From: a virus
DNA: 64,000 nucleotides
Virus record (IMG/VR): IMGVR_UViG_3300045538_000426
Span: 32,001 to 96,000 of that record
Reading direction: 5' to 3' (one strand)
The notes under the pieces are model-generated. The model made no database searches. It saw nothing but the letters and a program-made list of their open reading frames with translations, and was not told the origin of the DNA. The position numbers were made by a program, and so were the translations under genes. Position 1 is the first letter of the stretch; every line of letters begins with the position of its first letter. Shown here piece after piece: positions 8,532 to 53,853 of the stretch.

Positions 8532-10314
8532 AGGATACTTCGGAACGAAGATTTATGAGGTGGTAAAGGACAGTCATGAGATTGTGTTTTTTACTGGTCG
8601 TGACATGATGGTTAGTTACGATGTAGATTGGGTGATAATCGCCAGCAGCACCCCTTCACATGGAGAGTTGGTCAAAACTTTCCTTTTTAAAGGAATAAAC
8701 GTTTTCTGTGAAAAGCCACTGACTTCAAATTTCAGCGAATCGCTGATTCTGATGGAACTCGCCGATAGGCTCGGTGTGAAGTTATACATCGACGATGTTT
8801 TTCTTTTCAACTCCGAATATATAAGACGAAAAGATGAATTCCGCGACTCAAATTCTTTGGTTTTTTCGTGGAACAAATTCGGATCATTTGGCGATAACAT
8901 AGTAAATAACCTCGTTTACCACGACATTTATTTGTTATTGGATATATTAGGCCCTCAGCGAATATCTAATTTTTCCACTGCCCGGAATAGAATAAACGAA
9001 AAGCAATATGGTTTTATATTTGGCAACGTTCCGGTTTACTTGTCATATGACAGACTCTCACAAGGAGCGGCCAGAAAAACTATAACGTCTTTGGATTTCG
9101 CTTCATCAACTTCGTCTGAGATAAACCTTTCTTCGCCCGAAAACAATCCCCTACGTGATATGATGGAACGGGTTCTGAACGGTGGTGTGGATTTCAAACA
9201 GAACACGGAACGTCACCGTGAAGTCGAACGCATACTACAATGTCATTTTAAAAATAACAAACCAAGAGTAGCTATCGTAGGCGCTGGTGTCTTCGGTGTA
9301 AGTGCTGCGATGGAACTAAAGGACGACTTCTCTCCGACTATCTTTGAGTCGGAGATGGACATTTTAACCAAAGCGAGTTCGATAAATCAGTATAGGATTC
9401 ATCGGGGATACCATTACCCACGGAGCGCGGACACCGCTTTCGCATCAAAGAGTGGAAATGATTCTTTTCAAAAGACATTTGACTGTAAATCGAATTTAGA
9501 AGTCAAGAGTTATTATTGTATCGCAAAGGATGGTTCGAGGACATCCGTGGGTGATTATGTGTCTTTTTTGGAAAAGACAGGATTGGAATTTGAAGTCACT
9601 GACAACGACAGACTAAAATCGGAAAATTTGGGCATTATTTTGAAGGTGGATGAAAAATTGTTTGACCCGACGAAACTGAAAACTGACGTGTGGAAGAAAA
9701 TAGAAGAACATGGTTTATCGGTTATATTGGGGCGACGATTTGAACGGACGATGGTTTATGAATACGATTACGTCGTCAATTGTTCTTACGCAAATATAAA
9801 TCATATCCTATCTGACAGCCAACGGTTTGATTGTCAATTTGAATTGTGTGAAAAACCAGTGGTCAAACTACCTGACTCATATAAGAACATGAGCGTGGTC
9901 ATTATGGATGGTCCATTTATGTGCATCGACCCGTTTGGTTCAACGGGATATCATGTGATGGGCAATGTAGTTCATGCTATACACGCCACCAATGTCGGAA
10001 AGTTTCCAGAAATACCTAAAAAATACGTTCCCCATATGAACATCGGAGTCGTTCCGGCGGACAAGTTGAAGGATGTTACTAACGTGGATAGGTTCGTCAA
10101 GTCAGCCTCTGTCTTTTTTAAAGATATGGATGCTATGGAACACATAGGATCGATGTTCACGGTCAGAACCGTGTTGCCTGAGAGGGACCATGATGATGCA
10201 CGTCCTAGCTTTATTAAACAACACAATGATAAGGTATACTCGGTCTTTTCTGGAAAAATAACTTCCTGTGTCGATTGTGCTAAAAATTTGAAAGAAATGT
10301 TGTTAAAATCTTAA
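8509..10314 (+). CDS. Fusion of Gfo/Idh/MocA oxidoreductase and FAD-dependent oxidoreductase
   Basis: N-terminal IGIIGRGYFG..FCEKPL; second domain VAIVGAGVFG, ASSINQYRIHRGYHYPRS and SGKIT. ATG at 8509 is the likely start. Confidence 0.8.
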   Translation: MRIGIIGRGYFGTKIYEVVKDSHEIVFFTGRDMMVSYDVDWVIIASSTPSHGELVKTFLFKGINVFCEKPLTSNFSESLILMELADRLGVKLYIDDVFLFNSEYIRRKDEFRDSNSLVFSWNKFGSFGDNIVNNLVYHDIYLLLDILGPQRISNFSTARNRINEKQYGFIFGNVPVYLSYDRLSQGAARKTITSLDFASSTSSEINLSSPENNPLRDMMERVLNGGVDFKQNTERHREVERILQCHFKNNKPRVAIVGAGVFGVSAAMELKDDFSPTIFESEMDILTKASSINQYRIHRGYHYPRSADTAFASKSGNDSFQKTFDCKSNLEVKSYYCIAKDGSRTSVGDYVSFLEKTGLEFEVTDNDRLKSENLGIILKVDEKLFDPTKLKTDVWKKIEEHGLSVILGRRFERTMVYEYDYVVNCSYANINHILSDSQRFDCQFELCEKPVVKLPDSYKNMSVVIMDGPFMCIDPFGSTGYHVMGNVVHAIHATNVGKFPEIPKKYVPHMNIGVVPADKLKDVTNVDRFVKSASVFFKDMDAMEHIGSMFTVRTVLPERDHDDARPSFIKQHNDKVYSVFSGKITSCVDCAKNLKEMLLKS

Positions 10315-38910: not shown

Positions 38911-40749
38911 ATGGCACTCAAAGTCAAGATCAGTGAATTTGTCTCCGCATCCTTTGTCTCGGGAAGCGACTTGATTCCAATTGTCCGATACGAATCCGGC
39001 AGTTACAGTAACAAGAAGACTGATTTATCTGCTGTGAAGGATTGGTTAGTCACATCCGTGCCAATCGGAATACCCGCAGATGGTGTTTATACTGATGGGT
39101 TTTTTGATACGTTCACGAATACCACTCGGATTTCCGATGCCATCGATGATATAAGCGAAGCCTTTCTCGATTTGGCACCAGTAAAAGCCGGATTGCTCAC
39201 GGGAACAAACCTATCCATCTCGGGTGTAACGGAATATTCTGCTTATCTTGCATCGGGACTAAATTCCCATTGGTATAGCGGGTCTATATCCGCTGGAAGT
39301 CAAGTTTCTAAGTTTGTTAATGGTACCGCTTTGACGTTGTCGACCACGGGCTCTGGGCAATCTTCGCCGATGAATTTCCGTTCGGGAAAATACAGCGACT
39401 TCTCCTCTTTAACGGGGGGAGTCACCGCCAGTTTCTCCACTGGAAGTAACGCGGTAGTTCAAGCATCGAGTGCATCTATATTAAACTCCACGGCATCGGT
39501 TGTATCAAGTAGTTTGGCGATTGGAACTGGAATACTACCATCCACCTATATAAATGGAACTTCCCGATATAATACATTCTGGACGCAAACATCAGCGTCC
39601 GTAAAACACACACTTTCTGTCACTGGTTCTTCTACCTACCGAGTCACCGCCGATAATGGTGCCGGAACCACTAACGGATATACGATTTGGTTTGCTACAA
39701 ATACGGGCAATGATTATCCCAATCAAACTGTTTCAGCGACCGCTAGTGTGTCAACTGTTAATTTGAAATACATTAGCGGCATGGCATATCTATCCGGGTC
39801 CTCGACGGTACAAGTTAGGCTGAATGCTAATAATTTACATAATCCGGTATACAATTCAACTCCCATATCGTTTGCATTCTCAAACCCAACGATAGGATCG
39901 ATATCGGCCACAGGAAGCACGTCTACACCGGCGCATGGTGACCAGTTGGCTATAACAACCTCGTTGAATGTCACCACCGCGAATCAAGTTTCTTCTACAC
40001 CTTGGACGACGAATCCAACCTTTGTAGTCACCGCCACGAAACCGGGAAAATCAAATGTGACATCTGGAACAGTGACGGTTTATTCCCGTCCGGTTAACAC
40101 TTATTCAAATCCGTCGTCGGGAACCACAAACGCGGCCAACACCATAACAGAACTGTTCTTGGATGAATATTATAGAATAGGAAATTTGAAAAGCGGTTCG
40201 ACGTCAACATATACGACGAATTTCCCATCTTCATCGAACCTACAGACATCAGTTTCCAGCGCAGATAATGCTCATTTACAGGTTCAGAACGGTAGATTGA
40301 TAGCTGCTGGAAGCGGAGATTACAGTGGATTTACACCGGGTGCTTCCGCTGGTGGATATGCTAATTATTTCCGTAGATTAGACATTCTCTCCGATAACGT
40401 TGAGAGTGGACAGTTGACTATGTCATTCTCCGGATTCTCAACGGTTGAGGCGTGGGGTTCGTCTACCGGAGTCGGTCCAGAAGTAGCGATTGTATTGTCA
40501 TCCAGCATAGCCTCCAATCTAACCGCGAGTAGTATATTCGATTTGGGATTGGGCACTGGTCTATATTCGGGAACAAACGTAACCGGTTCTCAGAACGCGG
40601 CTAATTCATCATTGGGTTCCGGTCGAGTTTATTGGGCTCTGCCATTGGGAACAAACACCGGCCCAGCAACAACAAATCATCTCGTTTTATGGATACGTTA
40701 CAAGAACGCATCCACTAATTATATAGACGACCTGACTTTCAAAGTTTAA
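38911..40749 (+). CDS. Ser/Thr/Gly-rich virion structural protein (fibre/baseplate-like)
   Basis: Beta-rich, low-charge composition; N-terminal KISE motif shared with the 44802 protein; preceded by the late motif. Confidence 0.6.
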   Translation: MALKVKISEFVSASFVSGSDLIPIVRYESGSYSNKKTDLSAVKDWLVTSVPIGIPADGVYTDGFFDTFTNTTRISDAIDDISEAFLDLAPVKAGLLTGTNLSISGVTEYSAYLASGLNSHWYSGSISAGSQVSKFVNGTALTLSTTGSGQSSPMNFRSGKYSDFSSLTGGVTASFSTGSNAVVQASSASILNSTASVVSSSLAIGTGILPSTYINGTSRYNTFWTQTSASVKHTLSVTGSSTYRVTADNGAGTTNGYTIWFATNTGNDYPNQTVSATASVSTVNLKYISGMAYLSGSSTVQVRLNANNLHNPVYNSTPISFAFSNPTIGSISATGSTSTPAHGDQLAITTSLNVTTANQVSSTPWTTNPTFVVTATKPGKSNVTSGTVTVYSRPVNTYSNPSSGTTNAANTITELFLDEYYRIGNLKSGSTSTYTTNFPSSSNLQTSVSSADNAHLQVQNGRLIAAGSGDYSGFTPGASAGGYANYFRRLDILSDNVESGQLTMSFSGFSTVEAWGSSTGVGPEVAIVLSSSIASNLTASSIFDLGLGTGLYSGTNVTGSQNAANSSLGSGRVYWALPLGTNTGPATTNHLVLWIRYKNASTNYIDDLTFKV

Positions 40750-40758
40750 TTCGTAAGT

Positions 40759-43700
40759 ATGTCACTTAACAAAACAGACCTGGCCTTTAAGAAGCTGATA
40801 AACCGTCAGTTTACTACACCAAATCGTGCGTTCTATCAAGAGGTCGGTGCTAATACTCTTGAGATAGATTCTGGGATGGTTTATACAAGCCCGATACCCA
40901 CCTCAAGGGCCGAGGCTATATCCGCGAGTGTGGTGAGAGTAGTAAAATGTGCATTAACTAAAGATTACAGTGGAACCGTATCCACTTCATCTTACTATAT
41001 GATTTCCGGCAGCGGATACTCTGTAGACGCAAGCAACTATAACGCTAATTTCACATCATTGGGCGCTAACTTCTTCGTGATAAGTAGTTCATACGTTCAG
41101 AGGAATTTTTTAAGTGAAAAATACGGAAGTCAATATGCCGTGGAAGTGAGAGATAGTTCCGGTACACAACTGTCATCGGATTCTTCTATAAATTGGTATT
41201 TCGACTACAAAAGTGGTGTGTTACACGTAGCTGACCCGTCACCGTCGACTTTGCCGTATTCTATAACAGCGTCTCAATACATTGGTTCGTTTTTGAGTGA
41301 CTCGTCGCTGAACGGTAACGTAGGTACTCCCGAAATGTACGGAGCGGTTGGAGACGGAACCACTGATGATTTCTTGGCATTTAAGCATGCTTTGGTGAGT
41401 CATAGTATAGTAGAATTGGGTGCTAAGACTTACGCCGTCCGTGGTTACATCGGTATGCCTTCTAACAGATCCCTCGTTGGAAAAGGAAAGGATAGATCTG
41501 TAATTAAATTGATGGATAATTCACCGTATGGATATGGTTCACAGATATATGTGATTCAAAACACGGTGATGCAAGATGATGTTTATTGGACCGGTTCTTC
41601 GGTAGGAACATCCACCGGAACAGGATCAATCGTGGTCGACTACAGAGACACGTCTGTAAGAGATCAATCACCGTCAAGTCCATATTACCAACAGTCACAG
41701 GCACAAGCTTTTGCTGGTATGGGTTACTGGCAACATGACACGAGTGTAGCGAAAATCGGCGCACGTAGAAACGTTTTGATCGAAGGATTGACGGTCGATT
41801 GTAATTTTGATTATCAGGCTAGACACGGAAGCATAAATCATTCCGACAACCCATATTCGGCGTCCAGAGTCGCGGGTGGATATTATTACATACCGGATTA
41901 CAGAGAAAGAGTCCGCCCTACCATCCACGCTATAGTGTTGAATGGAGAGAATATCGTAGTCAAGGATGTCAAAATTGTAAATTATGGATACGGCGTGGCT
42001 TATGCTACATCGGGCCCACTGAACTACGCGGACTCAGCCACGTTGCCGGTTTATAACGAAAACTTTCCGCTTTTGATAAATGGTGACATCAGTGTAGATT
42101 ACACGTCTTCAACTCACCACCGTCCATCGGATCAAGCAGGCCTTTCGCTTTTCCGTGGAAACTACGCTATTGATTGCGAAGTTTTGGATATTGCTAATGT
42201 AAATTTGATGAATCCGTTCTCGAATACAACGGCCATCTATGTAACAAATCAATCGTTGAACACCAGCAATGGACAAAGCAGTTTTTCTTCCGAGGGTGGA
42301 ATTTTCAATTGCGTGGTCGATCCTGGTCGCAGAATAAAGACTCCGACTGCGAGTTTGTGGAGTGGTTCTTATTTGGATAGTTATAGTTACGTAAGTTCAA
42401 GTTTAAAACAATCCGCAGCAACTTTAGCCGAGTGGTTGTATACATCACAGGGATCTTTGACTGGATCGAATGGAGATATAGCTATATCAGAGGGTTCTCC
42501 TGCGGGAGCTTACACCTCACATATGAGGAAGGTGAGTGGAAGTTGGAAACCTATTGGATCTGGTTACGCTGTTCAGGAACATTATGTCCATGCATTCTCC
42601 GGATACAGAGTGTTTAATAGCTTAGCGAGAAATGCGGAGACAGGATTTTATCTGGATAGTTGGAGAAACAACGCGTTCGTTGAAAACAATCAGTTCGTCG
42701 ACGTTTCGAGTGGATTTAGAACCGTGGTATCTGACATCATATTGACATCCAGTTATAAAAACGTAGTCATTAAAGATAATTATGTTAAATTGACTGATCA
42801 GAGCAGAGCTTATGTCTATGGTCACGGTGCAATATTCTATGGAGCCGGCATGGCAACAGCAGATGGTTCTTCGTTAAGACACATAGATAATTTGACGATT
42901 GAAAACAATTTATTCGAATTGCCGATATCCGGAAGCACAGACGTATATGGTTCAGGTAATGTGGTGTTTAGGACGTATCCGAGATACGCTGGAATTTGGT
43001 TTGGTTCGGAAACCTCACTTTCCGGTTCATCACAACGGAAACATCGTTCGGTTTCTGTAAAAAACAACCATTTCTCAAACTGGAATCCGGTCAGGTCTCG
43101 ACTCGAATCTACTGAAGCGTTTGGGTATAATTTACCAATTTGGTTCGCATACAGCACGTCTTCATTAGAAGCTGATATAGATGACCCGGCAGCAGGACCG
43201 TTTCCATTGTCGATAAACAAGTTCAAGACGAATTTTTTACCTAACTATAACATTTCGGAAAACACCTATAGTGATGCAATTTATCCAGCTACATCGTCTC
43301 TGGTCCCAATCATCGTTTCGCTGCAAGGCAACGGTAATACATTTTATTATCCAATTGATCAAGTAAGCAAGCTTGCCACTTTTACCGCGACGAGTGGAAG
43401 TATAGGAATATTATTTGCAACCGGAAGTTTATATGGAACAGCGAGTTATTCTCTGAATGGAAGCGGCGGTTCCTCAACCGGATTCCAACCTTGGTCGTCC
43501 GGTTCAATGACAATTGAAATGGACGGTTCGGGGAACCTCCAAGATGAAGATGGAAACCCAATTGAATCGGAAGAATCCTCCTCTTTCATAACCTATGCCG
43601 GATCTGTATCTATCGGAACGACCGCTTCGGCAGCTGGATATTCATTGTATGTAAGTCGTTCAATTAAAATAGACGGTGAGTTAAGTCAAGGAACGGCCTC

Positions 43701-44754
43701 GATTGCATTTGGAAACTGGTCCCACGCAGAAGGAGATCTTACTTATGCTGGAGGAATAGCAGCTCACGCTGAAGGATATAACACTAATTCTAGTGGAAGT
43801 TATTCTCACTCTGAAGGTGGACTCACTCATGCTAGCGGATTATATGCCCATTCTGAGGGTTCATATACGTCGGCAAGCAACTACGCAGCTCACGCTGAAG
43901 GATATAACACTATTGCAAGTGGTCAACAGAGTCATGCTGAAGGATCTTCCACATTGGCGTCTGGTAATGGTTCTCATTCTGAGGGACAGCACACCACGGC
44001 AAGCGCACATTACCAACACGTATCTGGAAAATACAATGTAGCCAGTTCCAACAATGACGACCTCTTCATCATCGGATCAGGAACAGAAAATTCACGACGG
44101 TCTAATATAATGGTTGTAAATAGAAAAACTGTATATCTTAATAACGGCGGCTATGTATCAGGTAGTGGATTCAATATTGTTTCCGGAAGTTCTTTGTGTG
44201 TTAACACAACAGAGTCTTTCTTTGACAGAACATATTGGAGCGCTTCACTGTCTGTTGGCGGAGGGGTAATTGTAAAGAATGGTATATTATTGGTGACTGG
44301 TTCCGAATCTAACGGCGGTGGAAACAACGCCGGAAGTATTTTTGTTAAAGGTTGTGAAGATGCTCCGTTTTTGACATTGGGTTCAAAGAACGACGGAGCA
44401 TCCTCTGTTCAGAAATATGGACTTATTCAATCGTCCGGAAAAAGACTGTGGTTAGCCGCTGGAACATCAGCTGGCATCTTATGTATAGGACCTGATGACG
44501 AAAACAATGCCACATCAATTGGAACCACGCCAGACAGTGATTATACACTTAATATAGGTCCTGGAGCAGGAACATATGCTTTGAGAGTGCAGGGTGGTAT
44601 ATCCTCAAGTTTCTTCAAGACTCCGGCGAGCAGTTCTGTGGTTGTGAATGTCACCGGTTCTATGTTCTATAGCGGAAGTAATTTGTTCATATTTACTGGA
44701 AACGGATCTGCTGGAGGATTGGTTGGATGGAAAACCGCTTCACTAGGCGGATAA
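40759..44754 (+). CDS. Tail spike/fibre with pectate-lyase-like beta-helix depolymerase and HAEG repeats
   Basis: TPEMYGAVGDGTTDD (Pectate_lyase_3-like start), beta-helix-like middle, then about seven 14-aa S/A-HAEG repeats. Confidence 0.8.
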   Translation: MSLNKTDLAFKKLINRQFTTPNRAFYQEVGANTLEIDSGMVYTSPIPTSRAEAISASVVRVVKCALTKDYSGTVSTSSYYMISGSGYSVDASNYNANFTSLGANFFVISSSYVQRNFLSEKYGSQYAVEVRDSSGTQLSSDSSINWYFDYKSGVLHVADPSPSTLPYSITASQYIGSFLSDSSLNGNVGTPEMYGAVGDGTTDDFLAFKHALVSHSIVELGAKTYAVRGYIGMPSNRSLVGKGKDRSVIKLMDNSPYGYGSQIYVIQNTVMQDDVYWTGSSVGTSTGTGSIVVDYRDTSVRDQSPSSPYYQQSQAQAFAGMGYWQHDTSVAKIGARRNVLIEGLTVDCNFDYQARHGSINHSDNPYSASRVAGGYYYIPDYRERVRPTIHAIVLNGENIVVKDVKIVNYGYGVAYATSGPLNYADSATLPVYNENFPLLINGDISVDYTSSTHHRPSDQAGLSLFRGNYAIDCEVLDIANVNLMNPFSNTTAIYVTNQSLNTSNGQSSFSSEGGIFNCVVDPGRRIKTPTASLWSGSYLDSYSYVSSSLKQSAATLAEWLYTSQGSLTGSNGDIAISEGSPAGAYTSHMRKVSGSWKPIGSGYAVQEHYVHAFSGYRVFNSLARNAETGFYLDSWRNNAFVENNQFVDVSSGFRTVVSDIILTSSYKNVVIKDNYVKLTDQSRAYVYGHGAIFYGAGMATADGSSLRHIDNLTIENNLFELPISGSTDVYGSGNVVFRTYPRYAGIWFGSETSLSGSSQRKHRSVSVKNNHFSNWNPVRSRLESTEAFGYNLPIWFAYSTSSLEADIDDPAAGPFPLSINKFKTNFLPNYNISENTYSDAIYPATSSLVPIIVSLQGNGNTFYYPIDQVSKLATFTATSGSIGILFATGSLYGTASYSLNGSGGSSTGFQPWSSGSMTIEMDGSGNLQDEDGNPIESEESSSFITYAGSVSIGTTASAAGYSLYVSRSIKIDGELSQGTASIAFGNWSHAEGDLTYAGGIAAHAEGYNTNSSGSYSHSEGGLTHASGLYAHSEGSYTSASNYAAHAEGYNTIASGQQSHAEGSSTLASGNGSHSEGQHTTASAHYQHVSGKYNVASSNNDDLFIIGSGTENSRRSNIMVVNRKTVYLNNGGYVSGSGFNIVSGSSLCVNTTESFFDRTYWSASLSVGGGVIVKNGILLVTGSESNGGGNNAGSIFVKGCEDAPFLTLGSKNDGASSVQKYGLIQSSGKRLWLAAGTSAGILCIGPDDENNATSIGTTPDSDYTLNIGPGAGTYALRVQGGISSSFFKTPASSSVVVNVTGSMFYSGSNLFIFTGNGSAGGLVGWKTASLGG

Positions 44755-44780
44755 AACAGTCGAAATCAAAAAACAATCAA

Positions 44781-44788
44781 TATTTATA
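44781..44788 (+). promoter_or_regulatory. TATTTATA late-promoter-like motif
   Basis: Ends 13 nt before the ATG at 44802. Confidence 0.6.
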
Positions 44789-44801
44789 GGAAAGATAATT
44801 T

Positions 44802-46436
44802 ATGGCAAAAATCAGTGAACTAACGACACTTACCGCACCGATAACATCCTCTGATCTCGGAGTGATGATACGTCCCGCATCTGGTGGAGGATATAATTCC
44901 TTCAAAAGCAAGATGAATAATTTCGGAGATTTGACCGCATCTGTTTTAAATAATGGACAGGCAAATGTTGCTAGCGGTATAATTTCTCATGCCGAGGGCG
45001 GGGGCACTCTAGCGGATGGGCTTGGTTCTCACACCGAGGGATATTACACCACCGCAAGTATAAGTTATTCGCACGCAGAGGGGGCTCATTGTATCGCTCC
45101 TGGAAATTATACCCACGCGGAAGGTTCGGGGTCATGGGCAGGCATTTTGTTTGGGAATCCATCCTCCTTAGCTCCCGGCAGTCATGCTGAAGGTCTTTTC
45201 ACACGAACTGCTGCTCCTGGAGCACACTCGGAGGGAAGCGGAAGTTTGGCCAGAGGAACAGTTTCTCACGCAGAGGGAAATAATACTTGGACAATAGGTG
45301 AATCGTCCCACGCAGAGGGGCTAAAAACCACTGCTAGCGGAGAGTTTTCCCATGCGGAGGGAAATGGTTCATACACATTCGGGACAGCTTCTCACGCGGA
45401 AGGTCAATACACTTATGCTTCCGGAAATTATTCCCATGCTGAGGGATATTATACGACTGCGAGTGGAAATTATTCCCATGCTGAGGGAGAGGGAACCGTT
45501 GCTTCAAGCACCATTGCGCATGCTGAAGGATATTATTCTATAGCATCTAACAACGTAGCACATGCTGAGGGAAATAGGACCACTGCGTCGGGAGTAGGTG
45601 CACACACGGAAGGCGACTCTACTACAGCGACCGGAAATTATGCCCACGCGGAGGGATATGGGTCGACTGCCACGGGAATCTTGGCTCATGCTGAAGGTGC
45701 GTTGACTTTAGCTTCCGGCGTGGCGTCTCATGCTGAAGGTCGTTATACGACTGCTTCATCTGACTACGCCCACTCCGAAGGAATTGCAAGCATAGCATCG
45801 ACATATGCCGCCCACGCAGAGGGAAGTGGGTCGACGGCAGTTGGTACAGGATCTCATTCTGAAGGAAATAAGACGTTGTCATTCGGTGATTTTTCTCATG
45901 CTGAGGGATATTATACGACTGCGAGTGGAAATTATTCCCACGCTGAAGGCACATACTCTACAGCCAGTGGATTATATTCTCACGCAGAGGGATTTTATGG
46001 GGCTGCACCGGGTCTCGCCGCTCACGCTGAAGGCGGTGAGTGTGTTGCCCTTGCTGGGTATGGACATGCTGAGGGATACAGAACATTAGCATCAGGCGTC
46101 GCGTCACATGCTCAAGGAGCACACGTAACAGCGTCAGGGGATTATCAACAGGCAATGGGACGTTATAACGCCGCAATCTCAGATCAGTATCATTTAGTCT
46201 TGGTAGGAAATGGTTCATCTCCTTTTGCTAAATCTAATATACTGGTGCTCACCACTTCCAGTCTTTTCTTGAATGGATATGTGACCTCAAGTGGTTTAGT
46301 TGCTCCACAGACAAGCTCTTTACAGCCTGTGACCGGCTCGATGTTCTATAGCAGTGCTTTATCTAAACTATTCGTTTTCACTGGAGTAACTGGAACCGAC
46401 GGGCTTGTCGGATGGAAAGGAACTACCCTAAGTTAA
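44802..46436 (+). CDS. Fibre protein built from 14-aa HAEG repeats (YadA-head-like beta-roll)
   Basis: More than 20 repeats of the form ASGxxSHAEGxxTx. Confidence 0.8.
   Translation: MAKISELTTLTAPITSSDLGVMIRPASGGGYNSFKSKMNNFGDLTASVLNNGQANVASGIISHAEGGGTLADGLGSHTEGYYTTASISYSHAEGAHCIAPGNYTHAEGSGSWAGILFGNPSSLAPGSHAEGLFTRTAAPGAHSEGSGSLARGTVSHAEGNNTWTIGESSHAEGLKTTASGEFSHAEGNGSYTFGTASHAEGQYTYASGNYSHAEGYYTTASGNYSHAEGEGTVASSTIAHAEGYYSIASNNVAHAEGNRTTASGVGAHTEGDSTTATGNYAHAEGYGSTATGILAHAEGALTLASGVASHAEGRYTTASSDYAHSEGIASIASTYAAHAEGSGSTAVGTGSHSEGNKTLSFGDFSHAEGYYTTASGNYSHAEGTYSTASGLYSHAEGFYGAAPGLAAHAEGGECVALAGYGHAEGYRTLASGVASHAQGAHVTASGDYQQAMGRYNAAISDQYHLVLVGNGSSPFAKSNILVLTTSSLFLNGYVTSSGLVAPQTSSLQPVTGSMFYSSALSKLFVFTGVTGTDGLVGWKGTTLS
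45435..45940 (+). repeat. Identical 44-bp direct repeat within the 42-bp-period coding array
   Basis: CATGCTGAGGGATATTATACGACTGCGAGTGGAAATTATTCCCA at 45435-45478 and 45897-45940 (offset 462 = 11 x 42). Confidence 0.85.
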
Positions 46437-46597: not shown

Positions 46598-46604
46598 AAA
46601 AGGG

Positions 46605-46638
46605 TTTCTCCCGAACAGAATTAACTGTTCGGGAGAAA
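46605..46638. terminator. Perfect 14-bp hairpin, probable bidirectional terminator at the strand-convergence point
   Basis: TTTCTCCCGAACAG-AATTAA-CTGTTCGGGAGAAA. Confidence 0.8.
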
Positions 46639-46644
46639 TTTGTT

Positions 46645-48104: not shown

Positions 48105-48569
48105 TTAGACTAAAATGACATCGTCGAATCCCTCCGCTGTGGTTGGTCGAACATATTTTGCTAACATCTTATCAATAACGAATTCCGGAACCTCTCGTCC
48201 TCCGCTGGATTTCCTTTTAGCTTGATTTCTCATCAATGTAGCCTTATTTCTTTCGAGGACATATGCAATTATCTCCACGCCGTGTTTTCTCCCCGATAAA
48301 ATGTAATCTTTACGTTCCTTCGGATTCAGACTCGTAGCGTCGATCATAACATCTTTCCCTGACGCCAGGTCACGGTTGAGGTTGTATTTGATTGTAGAAA
48401 AGACCTGTGCTGTAACGGATTGGTCAGATTCATCTCTACCCAATATACCCCTCAATTTGTCGCTGCTGTGGACAATTACATTCGGGTGAGATTTTAAAAA
48501 GTTTTCGATGAATGTGGATTTTCCTGATCCAGACACTCCTACCATTATGTATAATTTTTTCTTTTCCAT
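48105..48569 (-). CDS. AAA_33 P-loop kinase (polynucleotide kinase-like)
   Basis: MVGVSGSGKST, SSD.LR, IDATSL..KER and R..R...EVP.FVI.KM. Confidence 0.85.
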   Translation of the reverse strand: MEKKKLYIMVGVSGSGKSTFIENFLKSHPNVIVHSSDKLRGILGRDESDQSVTAQVFSTIKYNLNRDLASGKDVMIDATSLNPKERKDYILSGRKHGVEIIAYVLERNKATLMRNQAKRKSSGGREVPEFVIDKMLAKYVRPTTAEGFDDVILV

Positions 48570-48574
48570 ATAGA

Positions 48575-48982
48575 TTATAACAAAGACGCTGCCCGCTTGT
48601 AATTCTCAATGTAACTTTCGATATTTTCTTTGCCGATTGGATTCATCGAGTGGACGGCATACTCCGGAAACTTTAACCTGTTATCCATACAGTATTCTAC
48701 TGCCCACTTGGCGCAATCGTATCCGGTCTTATCTTTGAAGGTATCATAGAGTCGGTTATAATCCTCCTTATTATTTCTATACATAGCGGGGTTATAATGT
48801 TCAGCTCCCAGGTCATGGTCAAACGAAATGAACAACGGCATGCCGAGGCTGTCTATGGTACTAACGAAATCTTTGTAATTTCGGACAACAGTCCATGGAA
48901 ACGGTGGAAGATTTACCCAAGTTACATTCTTCGGCCACCTCTCATCGTCGAGGAAAATATAATAAACAGACGTATTCATCAC
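48575..48982 (-). CDS. Cyclic-phosphate-processing receiver domain protein
   Basis: IFLDDER.P, VVRNY, ISFDHDLG, TGYDCAKW and HSMNPIG signature. Confidence 0.8.
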   Translation of the reverse strand: MMNTSVYYIFLDDERWPKNVTWVNLPPFPWTVVRNYKDFVSTIDSLGMPLFISFDHDLGAEHYNPAMYRNNKEDYNRLYDTFKDKTGYDCAKWAVEYCMDNRLKFPEYAVHSMNPIGKENIESYIENYKRAASLL

Positions 48983-48985
48983 CGA

Positions 48986-49013
48986 AGTCTATCAGGTTGT
49001 TTTGAATTGTCAA
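48986..49013 (-). promoter_or_regulatory. sigma70-like promoter
   Basis: TTGACA-N16-TAGACT on the - strand. Confidence 0.6.
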
Positions 49014-52000
49014 TTTACAAATACCATCTCATTGCTTAGTATTAATATATGAGTGTATCTTTCCCAACTATTAAGCTCTCGGTCGGATTTTTTCAATGGT
49101 CCTTTGAAATCTAATTTTGAATCCCAAGTGACCGGTGTGATTGAATTCACGTCTTTTATCTCCGATACCTTTATTACCAGTGTATAATCTTTATTAAAAT
49201 TGGTTTCATTTGCCATCACGAACTCCAATTTGTCATTCACGTTTATGGTGAGGTCGAGGTTGAACGGAACTTCAGCGGGTTTGTTCAATACAACTTGAGT
49301 TTGTATCACGCCGTTTTTATAAACAAACAACTTCGTCACGTCGCCTGGTTTACCAACAACACCCACGGAACCCGAGACTGTGAACGTTCCGCTTCTAGGT
49401 GAAATCCACTGACGGGAAGGTTTTATACTTGTATTTTTTGACAACGAACCACCGGTTCGGTTTATATTGACTCCCTTGAAAAATTCATTGGTAGAACTAT
49501 AAATGTCTCGATTAAACGATTGAAACTCGAAAAAGTTGGATGTTGATTTTGTTTTGTCATTTGTGACGCGGTATCCATACTTCCAATTATACTCCTTTTT
49601 TACATCCGACATATCTTCCTTCATCGCACCTTCGATGTAACGAATTCCGATTTTGATTTCCAAATCAGACGGTTCTCGTTGGAAGCAGATTCTATACAAT
49701 GTTCTAATTTTATCTTCCTCTGTTATTATACGGACGAATTCCGGCCTAGATACCATGTTTCTAACTTGTTCGATTACCATGGCGTTATTCATCAAGAACA
49801 ATGCTTGTTTCGGAACAGTGGTCTGGAATCTTCTTCCCGTGGTCATTTCGGGAGTAGCAAAGTCGAACGTTGTGAATACTTCCGGCAGACGACCTCTATC
49901 AACTAATCCATATACTGTTCTACGAGTAGAATACTCTCCACCAGCAGAAGCAATCAAATTGACCGACTGACCGCCCATATTCGTGTCTAATTTCCCACCC
50001 AAGAATAAAATGGTATCCCTTAACGTTTCAAATCCAATTCGGGTGGTGTTCATTTTCCAGTGAAGTCGATTATATGGGTCAATTAAAGACTTTCTGCCGT
50101 CACTATTGGATAACTGACGGTATGTTGAGGAATTCATAATAAGCCTGTGCATATCTTTCACCGACCATCCGTTTTTAATAAATGTGTAAGCCAGGTAGTT
50201 CAGTAATTCATAATGAACTGGTTTCGGTGTATTGATTCCGAAATCATCCACGGACGTTACCAATCCCTCACCAAAATGGAATTGCCAAATTCGATTGATG
50301 ATAACCCGTGACGTAAGTGGGTTGAGTGGATTTGCGATACTCTTTGCCAATTCAAGTCTTCCACTTCCATTGGTGAAAAGATTTGGATTAAGATAATCAA
50401 ACGTCGATATAAAACGCCTCGTTACTATCGGTCCACGAGTGCCGGGATCACCTTTGATTAACACGGGCGAATCGGTTGCTCTCGGTTTATCACCCAATGC
50501 CATTGCTCTAGGCGGAGTCGATGGGTGGGCGATTTCGTGAGTGATTAATTTTCCACGTTGTTGTCTGAGTTCATTGTCATACTGCATCGTTTTTTGATTA
50601 CTGGCATAGAATCTCGGAAACGAGTCACGGTCTATGTCAAGTGGACCTCCATTTTTAAAAATTGCTGAGATGAATCCTTCCAATCCAACCGTGTTAGTCG
50701 GCGTCACACTCACAGTAATGACTGCGTTGTGATATGCTGACGCCAAATCTTTCATGTTCTTTATCACGCCTATCTTTTTTATGTGGGATAGGAGATATGG
50801 GTTTACGTTAGTTCCGTTCTCTGATATAAACGTAGAGAATTCCTCTTTGAATTTGGTATCGTCTACGTTATACATCGAACCGAATGGTAAAAATACAGCT
50901 GACGTCGGAGTTACAGAAGACTTCTTCGGCACTTTTGGCGTGGATTGAACTGCTACCCCAGCATCGTTCGAAACAACTGTAACTTCCATTCCACCCCTCA
51001 TATTTGGTTGACGGACATTTATCATCGACGTCCACCTCTGAATCATTCTTATGTTCAGACCGGAGTCTCGGATGTAATCGGTTCTGTTAGATGACGCCAC
51101 TGAATTTAGAGCATATCCACCATACACATTTTTGAAAGTGTTTGTTTTAAATTCGTTTAGTGCGGCAAGGTAACGAGAGTTTATGAAACCCTCAATCTCT
51201 CCTTCTATCACAGTTCGTTTGTTTAAATAATCCTTGTAACCACTCGTCTCCACTACGGGATTTAGGAGAGGTTTTTCGGAATCATTTGGAAAATATGAAC
51301 TATTCAACACTCCATGTAGAGCATAATAATCTTTTGTGCTGATCGGGTCGAACTTGTGGTCATGGCAACGAGCACAAACAACCGTTGTGGCCATGAATCC
51401 TTTGAATATTACATCTATTTGGTCGTCAATAATGTCATTGGCGTTTCCGGAATTTTTACCAAGGGTCAGAAATCCAAGTCCCGCTAAATCTGGCCGTTTA
51501 ATATCGTCCAATTTATCTCCGGCTATCTGCTCTAATATGAATCGGTTGAATGGTTTGTTTTCGTTAAAACTTCGGATAACATAATCACGGTAGGTGTAAG
51601 AGTATGTGTAACGAGGTTCTCGATTTCCATTAACTGTTCCAGTGGTGTCGCTGTATCTGGCAGTATCCAACCAGTGCCTTCCCCACCTTTCGCCATACAT
51701 GGGATTGTCTAACAATCGGTCTATTAGTTTGGAATATGCATCTGAGGAGGAATCCGATAAAAACAATTCCACGTCTTTTTCGGAAGGCGGCAGACCTATC
51801 AAGTCAAAATACGCTCGTCGAATTAAAATCTTTTTGTCAGCTATCTGTGACGGCATCAGATTAGTTTTTGCAAGTTCTGTGAATACAAAGTTATCGATTG
51901 GGTTTGATATCCATTTACTAGATGACTTCGGTATCTCCGGCAATGTCAAAGGCTTGTAAGCCCAATGTTCTCTGGATTCTTTACCTAAGTCGACTAACTT

Positions 52001-52375
52001 TGTTTTTTCCACTCGTGGATCAGGTGCGCCATTTTTAATCCATGTCTCAAAATCTGATATTACCTGTGGAGATAATTTCCCATCGGGCGGCATTTGCAGA
52101 TCTTTATCTGAATATCGCATAGCCTTTATAATCAAACTCTGCTCTATGTCGTTTGGAACCACGGCCGGCCCGTTTTCTCCTCCCTTTAAGGATGCGTCTC
52201 TGTTATCCAATAACAGCTGGCCCTTAGCCTTCTTCCCCTCGGCGCTGTGACACTTATAACATTCCTTGATTAAAACTGGACGGATTTTCTTCTCAAAGAA
52301 GTCAGATTCATCTTTAGTGATTGCTGTGACGTTTAATGTCAGCAGATAAATGCACAATAGTATAATTTTGTTCAT
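49010..52375 (-). CDS. Planctomycete-type cytochrome c protein: PSCyt1 + DUF1549 (PSCyt2) + DUF1553 (PSD1)
   Basis: Signal peptide; FFEKKIRPVL..CYKCH..MPP; NPIDNF, LIRRAYFDLIGLPP, YGERWGRHWLD, CARCHDHKFDPI; GRLELA..NPLT.RV.INRIWQFHFGEGLV, P.QALFLMN and SNE..FV. Confidence 0.93.
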   Translation of the reverse strand: MNKIILLCIYLLTLNVTAITKDESDFFEKKIRPVLIKECYKCHSAEGKKAKGQLLLDNRDASLKGGENGPAVVPNDIEQSLIIKAMRYSDKDLQMPPDGKLSPQVISDFETWIKNGAPDPRVEKTKLVDLGKESREHWAYKPLTLPEIPKSSSKWISNPIDNFVFTELAKTNLMPSQIADKKILIRRAYFDLIGLPPSEKDVELFLSDSSSDAYSKLIDRLLDNPMYGERWGRHWLDTARYSDTTGTVNGNREPRYTYSYTYRDYVIRSFNENKPFNRFILEQIAGDKLDDIKRPDLAGLGFLTLGKNSGNANDIIDDQIDVIFKGFMATTVVCARCHDHKFDPISTKDYYALHGVLNSSYFPNDSEKPLLNPVVETSGYKDYLNKRTVIEGEIEGFINSRYLAALNEFKTNTFKNVYGGYALNSVASSNRTDYIRDSGLNIRMIQRWTSMINVRQPNMRGGMEVTVVSNDAGVAVQSTPKVPKKSSVTPTSAVFLPFGSMYNVDDTKFKEEFSTFISENGTNVNPYLLSHIKKIGVIKNMKDLASAYHNAVITVSVTPTNTVGLEGFISAIFKNGGPLDIDRDSFPRFYASNQKTMQYDNELRQQRGKLITHEIAHPSTPPRAMALGDKPRATDSPVLIKGDPGTRGPIVTRRFISTFDYLNPNLFTNGSGRLELAKSIANPLNPLTSRVIINRIWQFHFGEGLVTSVDDFGINTPKPVHYELLNYLAYTFIKNGWSVKDMHRLIMNSSTYRQLSNSDGRKSLIDPYNRLHWKMNTTRIGFETLRDTILFLGGKLDTNMGGQSVNLIASAGGEYSTRRTVYGLVDRGRLPEVFTTFDFATPEMTTGRRFQTTVPKQALFLMNNAMVIEQVRNMVSRPEFVRIITEEDKIRTLYRICFQREPSDLEIKIGIRYIEGAMKEDMSDVKKEYNWKYGYRVTNDKTKSTSNFFEFQSFNRDIYSSTNEFFKGVNINRTGGSLSKNTSIKPSRQWISPRSGTFTVSGSVGVVGKPGDVTKLFVYKNGVIQTQVVLNKPAEVPFNLDLTINVNDKLEFVMANETNFNKDYTLVIKVSEIKDVNSITPVTWDSKLDFKGPLKKSDRELNSWERYTHILILSNEMVFVN

Positions 52376-52407
52376 AATTTATTAACCGAACGACGTGCGT
52401 TCTTTGA

Positions 52408-53796
52408 TTAGGCGATTACCTTCGTTGCAACTTCACCGAAAACATCCGTGAGGCGGAAATCTCTTCCATTATAACGATAAGAAAGTTTCTTATGGTCGTA
52501 TCCGGTCAATCGGAGAATGGTAGCATGTAGATCGTGAACCGACATTTTATCCTCGACGACTTGTCCACCGAATTCGTCAGTTGCACCATATACTGTGCCA
52601 CCCTTGACACCACCGCCGACCAATACAGAAGACATAGCACGGTTCCAGTGACTTCTTCCGAATCCATTGGCTCCACCGACACCATCACGAGCAGGTGTTC
52701 GTCCGAACTCGCCTGTCATGACGATTAGAGTGGAATCTAATAGACCACGGGATTTCAAGTCTTGGATAAGAGCTGCAATCGGTCCGTCCACTTGGTCAGC
52801 TGCATTTTTAAGAGAACGGCTGATTCCGTCGTGGGTATCCCATCCACCAGTCCACACTTGAACGAATCGGACTCCCTTTTCAACCAATCTACGAGCAATA
52901 AGCATTTGTTTTCCTTGACTCGTGGTTCCATATGAGTCACGGACTGATTGAGACTCTTTGCTTATATCGAATACGTCAGTGGCCTCGGTCTGCATCTTGA
53001 ATGCTAGTTCGAAACTCTGAATACGTGCGTCAAATGCCTCGTCCTTTTGAAAATTCTGACGGTGGATTTCATTGAGAGATGATAATGTGTCTAATTGACT
53101 ACGTTGCTCTTTGAGAGACGCATATTGACTTTTGATGTTTTGAATCATCTTATCAACCGATCCAAGTGACGTGTCAATCGGCGTTCCCTGATACATTCCT
53201 GGGAGGAAAGAACTTCCGAAATTTTGTGTTCCACCGGTTGGCATTCCACCGGAACGGAGACTGATGAATGCTGGAAGGTTGTCGTTTCCGCTTCCCAGTC
53301 CATATACCACCCACGAACCCAAACTCGGTCGTACCAATCGAAGATTTCCGGTATTCATGAAAATCGTCGCTGTTTCGTGTGCTGGAACGTCGGTTGTCAT
53401 TCCACGGAGAACCGCTGCGTGGTCAATGTGTTGTCCAATCTTCGAGAACACTTCACTGACTTCGATTCCAGATTTTCCACACTTATTGAACTTGAATGGA
53501 GATCCACATGCAAGTCCACCCATTCCAGGAAGAGGCTGACCGTCCATTTCTACCAATTTTGGCTTCGGATCCCACGTATCAATGTGGGATTGGCCGCCGC
53601 TGAAGAAAATGTGGATGATATGTTTTGCTTTAGATGGGAAATGAGTGGCGACACCTTGTGCACCAGACAAGTCTCCCTCGAAAAGAGATGTCGCTCCCAA
53701 CATTCCCATTCCCATGCCAAATTTGGATAAGAATTGTCGCTTGGTCATGATTAAATCCAACGGGGATACGGAGTCTTGGTTACAGTATTCTTTCAT
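52408..53796 (-). CDS. DUF1501 domain protein with Tat-like N-terminus
   Basis: KRQFL signal; AKHIIHIFFSGGQSHIDTWDPKP, RPSLGSW..YGLG, ARRLVEKGVRFV, WDTH, GEFGRTP, RSHW, GGGVKGG..G.TDEFG, HDLHATIL and DFRLTDV. Confidence 0.95.
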   Translation of the reverse strand: MKEYCNQDSVSPLDLIMTKRQFLSKFGMGMGMLGATSLFEGDLSGAQGVATHFPSKAKHIIHIFFSGGQSHIDTWDPKPKLVEMDGQPLPGMGGLACGSPFKFNKCGKSGIEVSEVFSKIGQHIDHAAVLRGMTTDVPAHETATIFMNTGNLRLVRPSLGSWVVYGLGSGNDNLPAFISLRSGGMPTGGTQNFGSSFLPGMYQGTPIDTSLGSVDKMIQNIKSQYASLKEQRSQLDTLSSLNEIHRQNFQKDEAFDARIQSFELAFKMQTEATDVFDISKESQSVRDSYGTTSQGKQMLIARRLVEKGVRFVQVWTGGWDTHDGISRSLKNAADQVDGPIAALIQDLKSRGLLDSTLIVMTGEFGRTPARDGVGGANGFGRSHWNRAMSSVLVGGGVKGGTVYGATDEFGGQVVEDKMSVHDLHATILRLTGYDHKKLSYRYNGRDFRLTDVFGEVATKVIA

Positions 53797-53853
53797 AGTG
53801 ATTATGGTGTTTAGTATAACTATCAAATTGTGGAGTAAAGAAATGAATAAAAT

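Follow-up and report, generated by a model that had tools for sequence, protein, structure and literature searches.

How does a gene pair typical of Planctomycetes and Verrucomicrobia come to lie in the middle of a phage genome, and what might it do there? We considered this question for a stretch of 64,000 nucleotides (the window), which corresponds to bases 32001-96000 of the IMG/VR virus record IMGVR_UViG_3300045538_000426, a fragment of a tailed phage of 122,969 bp and about 41% completeness. Its minus strand carries two adjacent full-length genes, one encoding a DUF1501 protein of 462 aa (52408-53796) and the other a predicted exported PSCyt1/DUF1549/DUF1553 protein of 1121 aa (49010-52375), with a spacer of 32 nt between the DUF1501 stop codon and the start of the partner. 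Both open reading frames (ORFs) are as described in an initial annotation of this DNA, and Pfam confirms the four domains named there. The combination of DUF1501 with PSCyt1/PSCyt2/PSD1 is a conserved genetic module of Planctomycetes, Verrucomicrobia and Lentisphaerae, without assigned function (Kamneva et al. 2012, PMC3542564; He et al. 2017, PMC5615132). By sequence, the pair of the window belongs to this module and is carried by a new kind of carrier; the best explanation for its presence is an old host-derived module from a Verrucomicrobiota-type lineage, which large phages have since passed on under strong purifying selection.

The DUF1501 protein matches Pfam PF07394 with 449 bits (cut-off 27) over the complete profile (1-390 of 390). 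We chose the ATG at 53796 as its start, and not the upstream TTG at 53826, because the relatives open with the same MKEYC residues. The KRQFL signal resembling those of the twin-arginine translocation (Tat) pathway, noted initially, is present as TKRQFL at residues 18-23 (KR codons at 53737-53742), followed by a hydrophobic stretch. It is a Lys-Arg variant of the TRRxFL motif present in most relatives. Almost every relative has a Tat motif; the second Arg is nearly invariant, and 22 of the 29 viral rows and 56 of the 63 cellular ones contain the twin Arg. The partner, also on the minus strand, contains three Pfam domains in order, above the cut-offs and each covering nearly the whole profile: the PSCyt1 c-type cytochrome-like domain (PF07635, 55 bits; residues 39-99, 52079-52261), DUF1549/PSCyt2 (PF07583, 232 bits; residues 159-359, 51299-51901) and DUF1553/PSD1 (PF07587, 254 bits; residues 672-911, 49643-50362). 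A Sec-type signal peptide at about residues 1-18 (52322-52375) can be read from its N-terminus, and all phage partners have hydrophobic N-termini. The two haem-binding motifs previously reported for this protein were found at residues 39-43 (CYKCH) and 334-338 (CARCH; 51362-51376), the former in PSCyt1, where C39, C42, H43, M95 and P96 are invariant, and the latter within an invariant C-A-R-C-H-D-H-K (residues 334-341). Both CxxCH motifs are invariant in 40 partner sequences and occur in 12 of 12 full-length phage partners.

The pair thus shares with the module of the Planctomycetes-Verrucomicrobia-Chlamydiae (PVC) bacteria its full-length Pfam domains, adjacent and co-oriented genes, a Tat signal on DUF1501, a signal peptide and both CxxCH motifs on the partner, and an optional domain of carbohydrate-binding type. 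It differs in being phage-carried, in its low GC content, in belonging to a clade that has no member from a cellular genome and, in the sub-clade of the window, in the replacement of the twin Arg by Lys-Arg. The DUF1501-first gene order occurs, in cellular loci, mainly in the closest Verrucomicrobiota and Singulisphaera relatives.

As the family is otherwise cellular, and as IMG/VR classes as a provirus the record of the 173.8-kb contig L002, which carries the same pair, an artefact might be suspected: either host DNA misassembled onto phage DNA or the host flank of a prophage. We consider an assembly artefact or host contamination very unlikely, with a probability close to negligible, because L002 and further contigs share synteny with the window, because GC content at third codon positions (GC3) is phage-typical and because phage genes stand on the flanks. 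The pair lies mid-contig, and its neighbours on both sides in the window encode DNA polymerase, helicase, thymidylate synthase, fibre-like proteins, HNH, ClpP and YopX; elsewhere the record encodes tape measure and tail proteins, a UvsX-like recombinase, a DnaB-like helicase and ribonucleotide reductase. The minus-strand block that includes the pair also contains YopX, cREC_REC, AAA_33 kinase, ClpP and HNH genes. The GC3 z-scores of the two genes against 91 contig genes are -0.16 and +0.11 (less than 0.2 standard deviations from the contig mean), which bears out the impression, first gained by eye, that they are as AT-rich as their neighbours.

In L002, the pair is found in the same place, with amino acid identities of 89% (DUF1501) and 82% (PSCyt), and 15 of 34 ORFs around it match those of the window's contig in conserved order. 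Eight further metagenome loci (L121-L124, L128, L137, L138 and L148) have flanking genes in common with the window's contig or L002, among them cREC, AAA_33, ClpP and HNH, so that the same pair, place and phage neighbours recur in independently assembled contigs from different samples. A scan of Joint Genome Institute (JGI) metagenomes gave 22 loci at 68-89% identity, all with phage-like neighbours and a GC content of 0.31-0.44, the range of the phage clade, whereas loci at 57% identity or less, like the cellular relatives, have 0.55-0.67. Neither composition nor phylogeny agrees with contaminating host DNA, a possibility that the initial annotation had raised against itself. As to the L002 record, the 21 kb around its pair are phage-like and CheckV rates it 49% complete; host-like genes such as the pair might have triggered its provirus label.

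The pair is not a singular capture. Using a pattern scan built on an alignment, we found 35 IMG/VR viral contigs with DUF1501, with or without its partner; two of the 22 JGI loci are the L004 and L005 contigs of IMG/VR, the others adding about 20 metagenome contigs. The proteins of the closest relatives are 93% and 98% identical. One UniProt phage entry, A0A6J5M742 (uncultured Caudovirales phage), is likewise a phage protein, automatically annotated as DUF1501, and nothing in the viral structure library matches better (E 1.4e-8), but it has 14% identity over aligned columns, falls on a distant branch and is a database label, not a study. With tblastn, neither protein had a match among the phage genomes of GenBank. 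The initial annotation had also entertained that viral copies are common and already described: common they are, and our full-text literature searches returned no paper on phage copies of the module, in line with its statement that no characterised phage example was known. One Pseudomonas phage paper names DUF1501 only as a weak match for a 61-aa protein. The phage branch of the family is thus apparently unpublished, its copies being common in databases yet undescribed.

Four arrangements occur in the IMG/VR contigs: DUF1501 followed by PSCyt, PSCyt followed by DUF1501, two DUF1501 paralogs without PSCyt, and DUF1501 alone. Several of the records that carry DUF1501 are complete or nearly so according to CheckV (164 kb, 100%; 190 kb, 97%; 236, 243 and 227 kb, 100% each; 184 kb, 94%).

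Trees were built for both genes. With FastTree and IQ-TREE, all phage DUF1501 sequences fall in one clade with support 100, of which the sole cellular members are Verrucomicrobiota, and the best trees place two phage-only clades beside Verrucomicrobiota. The first, V1 (support 95), comprises the window, eight IMG/VR rows and low-GC metagenome proteins, with no sequence from a cellular genome; the second, V2 (support 100), is sister to a Chthoniobacter metagenome-assembled genome. The partner tree repeats this topology, including the sequence of its sub-clades, which indicates that the two genes travelled together. Since a single phage clade is not rejected by the approximately unbiased test (p 0.125), one or two captures are both possible. 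Among cellular genomes, the nearest sequences belong to Verrucomicrobiota and share 52-60% identity, in support of the descent from the PVC module that had been proposed, and the nearest cellular match lies on a contig of 1.96 Mb.

The rates of substitution indicate strong purifying selection on the module. Against L002, nonsynonymous divergence (dN) is 0.10 for DUF1501 and 0.12 for PSCyt; synonymous divergence (dS) is saturated and dN/dS was therefore taken from closer pairs of other phage copies. It is 0.017 for both genes between L125 and L126, 0.033 and 0.068 between L122 and L123, and 0.10 for both genes between L133 and L004. DUF1501 is among the best-conserved proteins of the syntenic block. 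With phage flanks, phage composition and these ratios (0.017-0.10), the view of the initial annotation that the pair is phage-encoded, intact and kept can be maintained. Between L121 and L002, DUF1501 is 97% identical and the adjacent partner 79%, a contrast that reflects either very different rates or recombination within the module.

Which of the two proteins matters more to the phage? In four DUF1501-carrying phage genomes rated 94-100% complete, the PSD1 domain is absent genome-wide, and the same search was positive in every record with the pair. Because these near-complete phages keep DUF1501 and no PSD1, the best-supported division of roles is that DUF1501 is the conserved, predicted catalytic core and the haem-motif partner an optional helper. 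This shifts the emphasis away from the haem/redox system put forward in the initial annotation. If, on the contrary, the dihaem protein were the working part, it would serve as a periplasmic electron carrier that sustains the energy supply in infection, with DUF1501 as an accessory, in keeping with its two invariant CxxCH motifs, its cytochrome-like N-terminal domain and the electron transport that Kamneva et al. (PMC3542564) proposed for the module. We think such a redox or respiratory aid improbable: the partner can be dropped, which makes a purely redox role less likely, DUF1501 is better conserved than the partner in both comparisons given above (89% against 82%, and 97% against 79%), and no redox partner genes lie nearby.

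Variation in the partner is seen at several other loci. Intact DUF1501 genes with no long PSCyt ORF downstream were found at L132 (3438-4799), L129, L130 and L127, the DUF1501 of L132 being 99% identical to partner-bearing copies, and at L010 (11379-14164) two ORFs, of 537 and 345 aa, replace the single partner gene; these missing or split partners may reflect decay of the partner or sequencing errors. Many V2 phages (L020, 8726-9985; L013, 7880-9151; L029, 8757-10028; and others) have, next to the main copy, another DUF1501 paralog (419-425 aa) that also weakly matches DUF1552 (HXXSHH), and they have no PSCyt. L004 (9959-20883; the same contig as L134) contains two DUF1501/PSCyt pairs in opposite gene order, which fall in different sub-branches of clade V1, and then a third, divergent DUF1501 of 434 aa. 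A gene of 433 aa, with no match among the other loci, is inserted within the pair at L123 (8685-9986) and L137 (11377-12678), and in another sub-clade a conserved ORF of 86 aa lies between the two genes (L125, 2806-3066; L126, L127, L140 and L145). In the 190-kb phage L016, a papain-family cysteine protease gene (8875-9927) is directly upstream of the module.

What chemistry could the core protein perform? The structure model of DUF1501 (predicted local distance difference test score, pLDDT, 87.7) matches PafA (Z 19.9), ENPP6 (19.3), the Xanthomonas (Xac) NPP (19.2) and sulfatases (17-18.6) over 240-290 aligned residues, and sulfatases rank first in Foldseek. It shares with PafA, the NPP/ENPP phosphodiesterases and type I sulfatases the core fold, with acidic and His residues at the expected places. 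Residues D76, D125, H140, D320, H322, E363, R366 and H383 do not vary across 52 sequences, and the protein of the window has all of them; S70, D73, T74 and D76 are conserved in the family alignment. The best fold scores are those of the NPP/PafA-type phosphoesterases, enzymes with a two-metal site and a Thr/Ser nucleophile. A profile search pairs the GEFGR of DUF1501 with the GDHGR of sulfatases. The identity of DUF1501 to the known enzymes of the superfamily is 10-16%. No formylglycine motif (Cys/Ser-x-Pro/Ala-x-Arg) was found in the protein, and Pfam Sulfatase (PF00884) scores 16.1 bits, under the cut-off of 25 bits. Searches of the PDB by sequence gave marginal sulfatase and LtaS matches only, and no solved structure of the DUF1501 or PSCyt/PSD families. 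Because the formylglycine motif is absent, the Sulfatase score is below the cut-off and the fold is common to the superfamily, we predict from the model that DUF1501, with its conserved acidic and His residues, stands on a branch of its own within the alkaline phosphatase superfamily.

The model of the partner has a pLDDT of 83.4, and its residues 23-120 can be aligned to FoxE, a dihaem cytochrome, with Z 8.2 and 22% identity across 92 residues. The conserved parts of the protein are PSCyt1, DUF1549, DUF1553 and the 26 residues at its C-terminal end; the middle part and a C-terminal insertion are variable. This insertion, at about residues 925-1090 (49106-49603, minus strand), was delimited by secondary structure as a beta-sandwich before the conserved C-terminal helices, the fold comparison covering residues 925-1076; it has no counterpart in many relatives (91-95% gaps in the shorter ones). 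Foldseek relates it to the carbohydrate-binding modules (CBM) CBM6/35/36 and to PA14 at E 2e-3 to 1e-2, and VIA to adhesin, CBM36, CBM51 and MAM domains with middling scores (Z 7.3-8.9). For the helical DUF1549/DUF1553 core, none of the fold matches was convincing, a comparison barely tested since the beta-sandwich filled the match lists, and an Atlas search with the C-terminal part of the partner matched unnamed PVC clusters only. CBMs have been described in PSCyt genes of cellular genomes, with sulfatase genes as neighbours (He et al. 2017, PMC5615132).

Taken together, these features lead us to favour, with somewhat better than even confidence, an exported, ester-hydrolysing and nutrient-releasing auxiliary module of host origin. 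During infection, expression of the non-structural genes in the minus-strand block would yield both proteins. DUF1501 would fold in the cytoplasm and leave by the host Tat pathway; the partner would leave by Sec and receive haem from the cytochrome c maturation system of the host. Neither Cytochrom_C_asm nor TatC was found in five phage records that carry the pair and of which two are 97-100% complete, so that export and haem attachment would have to come from the host. In the periplasm, DUF1501, as a metal-dependent hydrolase of the alkaline phosphatase superfamily, would cleave a phospho- or sulfo-ester, and the partner, with its CBM-like domain, would bind or present the substrate or supply a redox step. 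Following the usual logic of auxiliary metabolic genes, the phage would gain phosphorus, sulfur or carbon from organic matter for the replication of a very large genome. The pair has the attributes by which such genes are recognised, namely viral genes on both sides, a host-derived sequence and purifying selection, all as read from the genomic data.

Several observations weigh against a nutrient-releasing hydrolase. At the position of the metal-binding Asp-His of sulfatases, DUF1501 has Glu-Phe, so its chemistry may differ from that of known superfamily members, and residue comparison did not locate its nucleophile. Many phages keep DUF1501 with no partner, so joint action of the two is not always required. 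A host genome has tens of paralogs (Kamneva et al. 2012, PMC3542564), which suggests many substrates and not simple phosphate scavenging. The cellular neighbours of the closest homologs are mixed (family 18 glycoside hydrolase, FG-GAP, beta-lactamase-like) and give no consistent substrate clue. Finally, the host is probably Verrucomicrobia, as judged from gene descent alone.

The main rival to nutrient release is remodelling of the envelope or receptor, in which the enzyme, aimed by the CBM-like domain of the partner, would alter a phospho- or sulfo-substituted surface glycan or lipid and so block superinfection or free the progeny, with no feeding involved. The DUF1501 fold also matches the envelope-modifying proteins LtaS, EptA, MCR-1 and YejM/PbgA (Z 15-17), the partner has its adhesin/CBM-like domain, and the block of the module adjoins fibre-like genes in the window (38911-46436), while in the 164-kb phage L011 the module stands between tail-fibre genes and other large genes. 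We nevertheless hold this explanation to be unlikely, though a serious contender: the transferase members are membrane-anchored whereas DUF1501 is soluble with a Tat-type signal, and the genome place differs among phages, with small early-type genes around the module in L004 and the V2 loci and a ribonucleotide reductase neighbour in L018 and L019. A broader proposal, which we judge quite unlikely, is that the phage-only copies have a role unlike that of the cellular paralogs, for example periplasmic or surface remodelling of host glycans or lipids, aimed by a swappable CBM-like domain and controlling superinfection or release. Large phages may also be a main carrier by which this very large orphan family spreads and diversifies among Verrucomicrobiota and Planctomycetota; V2 is sister to a Chthoniobacter pair, and transfer there may have gone in either direction.

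Nutrient release, the function we favour, has a parallel in cyanophages, which carry pstS and phoA as auxiliary metabolic genes for nutrient uptake. In both cases a host-derived, non-structural gene is under selection in a phage and acts, or here would act, in the host envelope. The differences are that the present system is a two-protein module, predicted to be exported, dependent on host Tat and haem attachment, and forms deep phage-only clades.

The signals that might govern expression of the pair are few. The initial annotation had pointed to TATACT as a possible -10 box at 53813-53818, and the hexamer is indeed there, reading from 53818 to 53813 upstream of DUF1501. A role as promoter is unsupported, because the promoter scan did not list it and gave no excess of promoter-like sites over shuffled sequence (24 against 23.1). 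No recognisable Shine-Dalgarno sequence precedes either gene (52376-52407 and 53797-53830, minus strand). The scan for hairpins found a two-way terminator-like structure at 46602-46641, on both strands, with stems of 17 and 14 pairs, which closes both the minus-strand block of the pair and the fibre genes that run towards it on the plus strand. Immediately downstream of the two genes, the minus strand encodes a cREC_REC protein and an AAA_33 kinase (48105-48982); at least one of these stays next to the module in L002, L121, L122, L124, L128 and L138, and a promoter-like site (TTGACA, 16 nt, TAGACT) lies upstream of them at 49013-48986.

DUF1501 and PSCyt/PSD are among the largest function-unassigned families of Planctomycetota and Verrucomicrobiota, with tens of copies per genome, and our literature searches found no experimental study of the function of either. 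As a phage keeps only what pays, its single, compact and strongly selected copies, with or without the partner, point to DUF1501 as the essential part of the module, and they provide small, AT-rich versions suited to expression and assay. They also serve as markers for a set of large phages (about 160-350 kb) from a host phylum whose phages have rarely been studied and would be, as far as the sequences indicate, an example of a phage gene that needs its host for Tat export and haem attachment.

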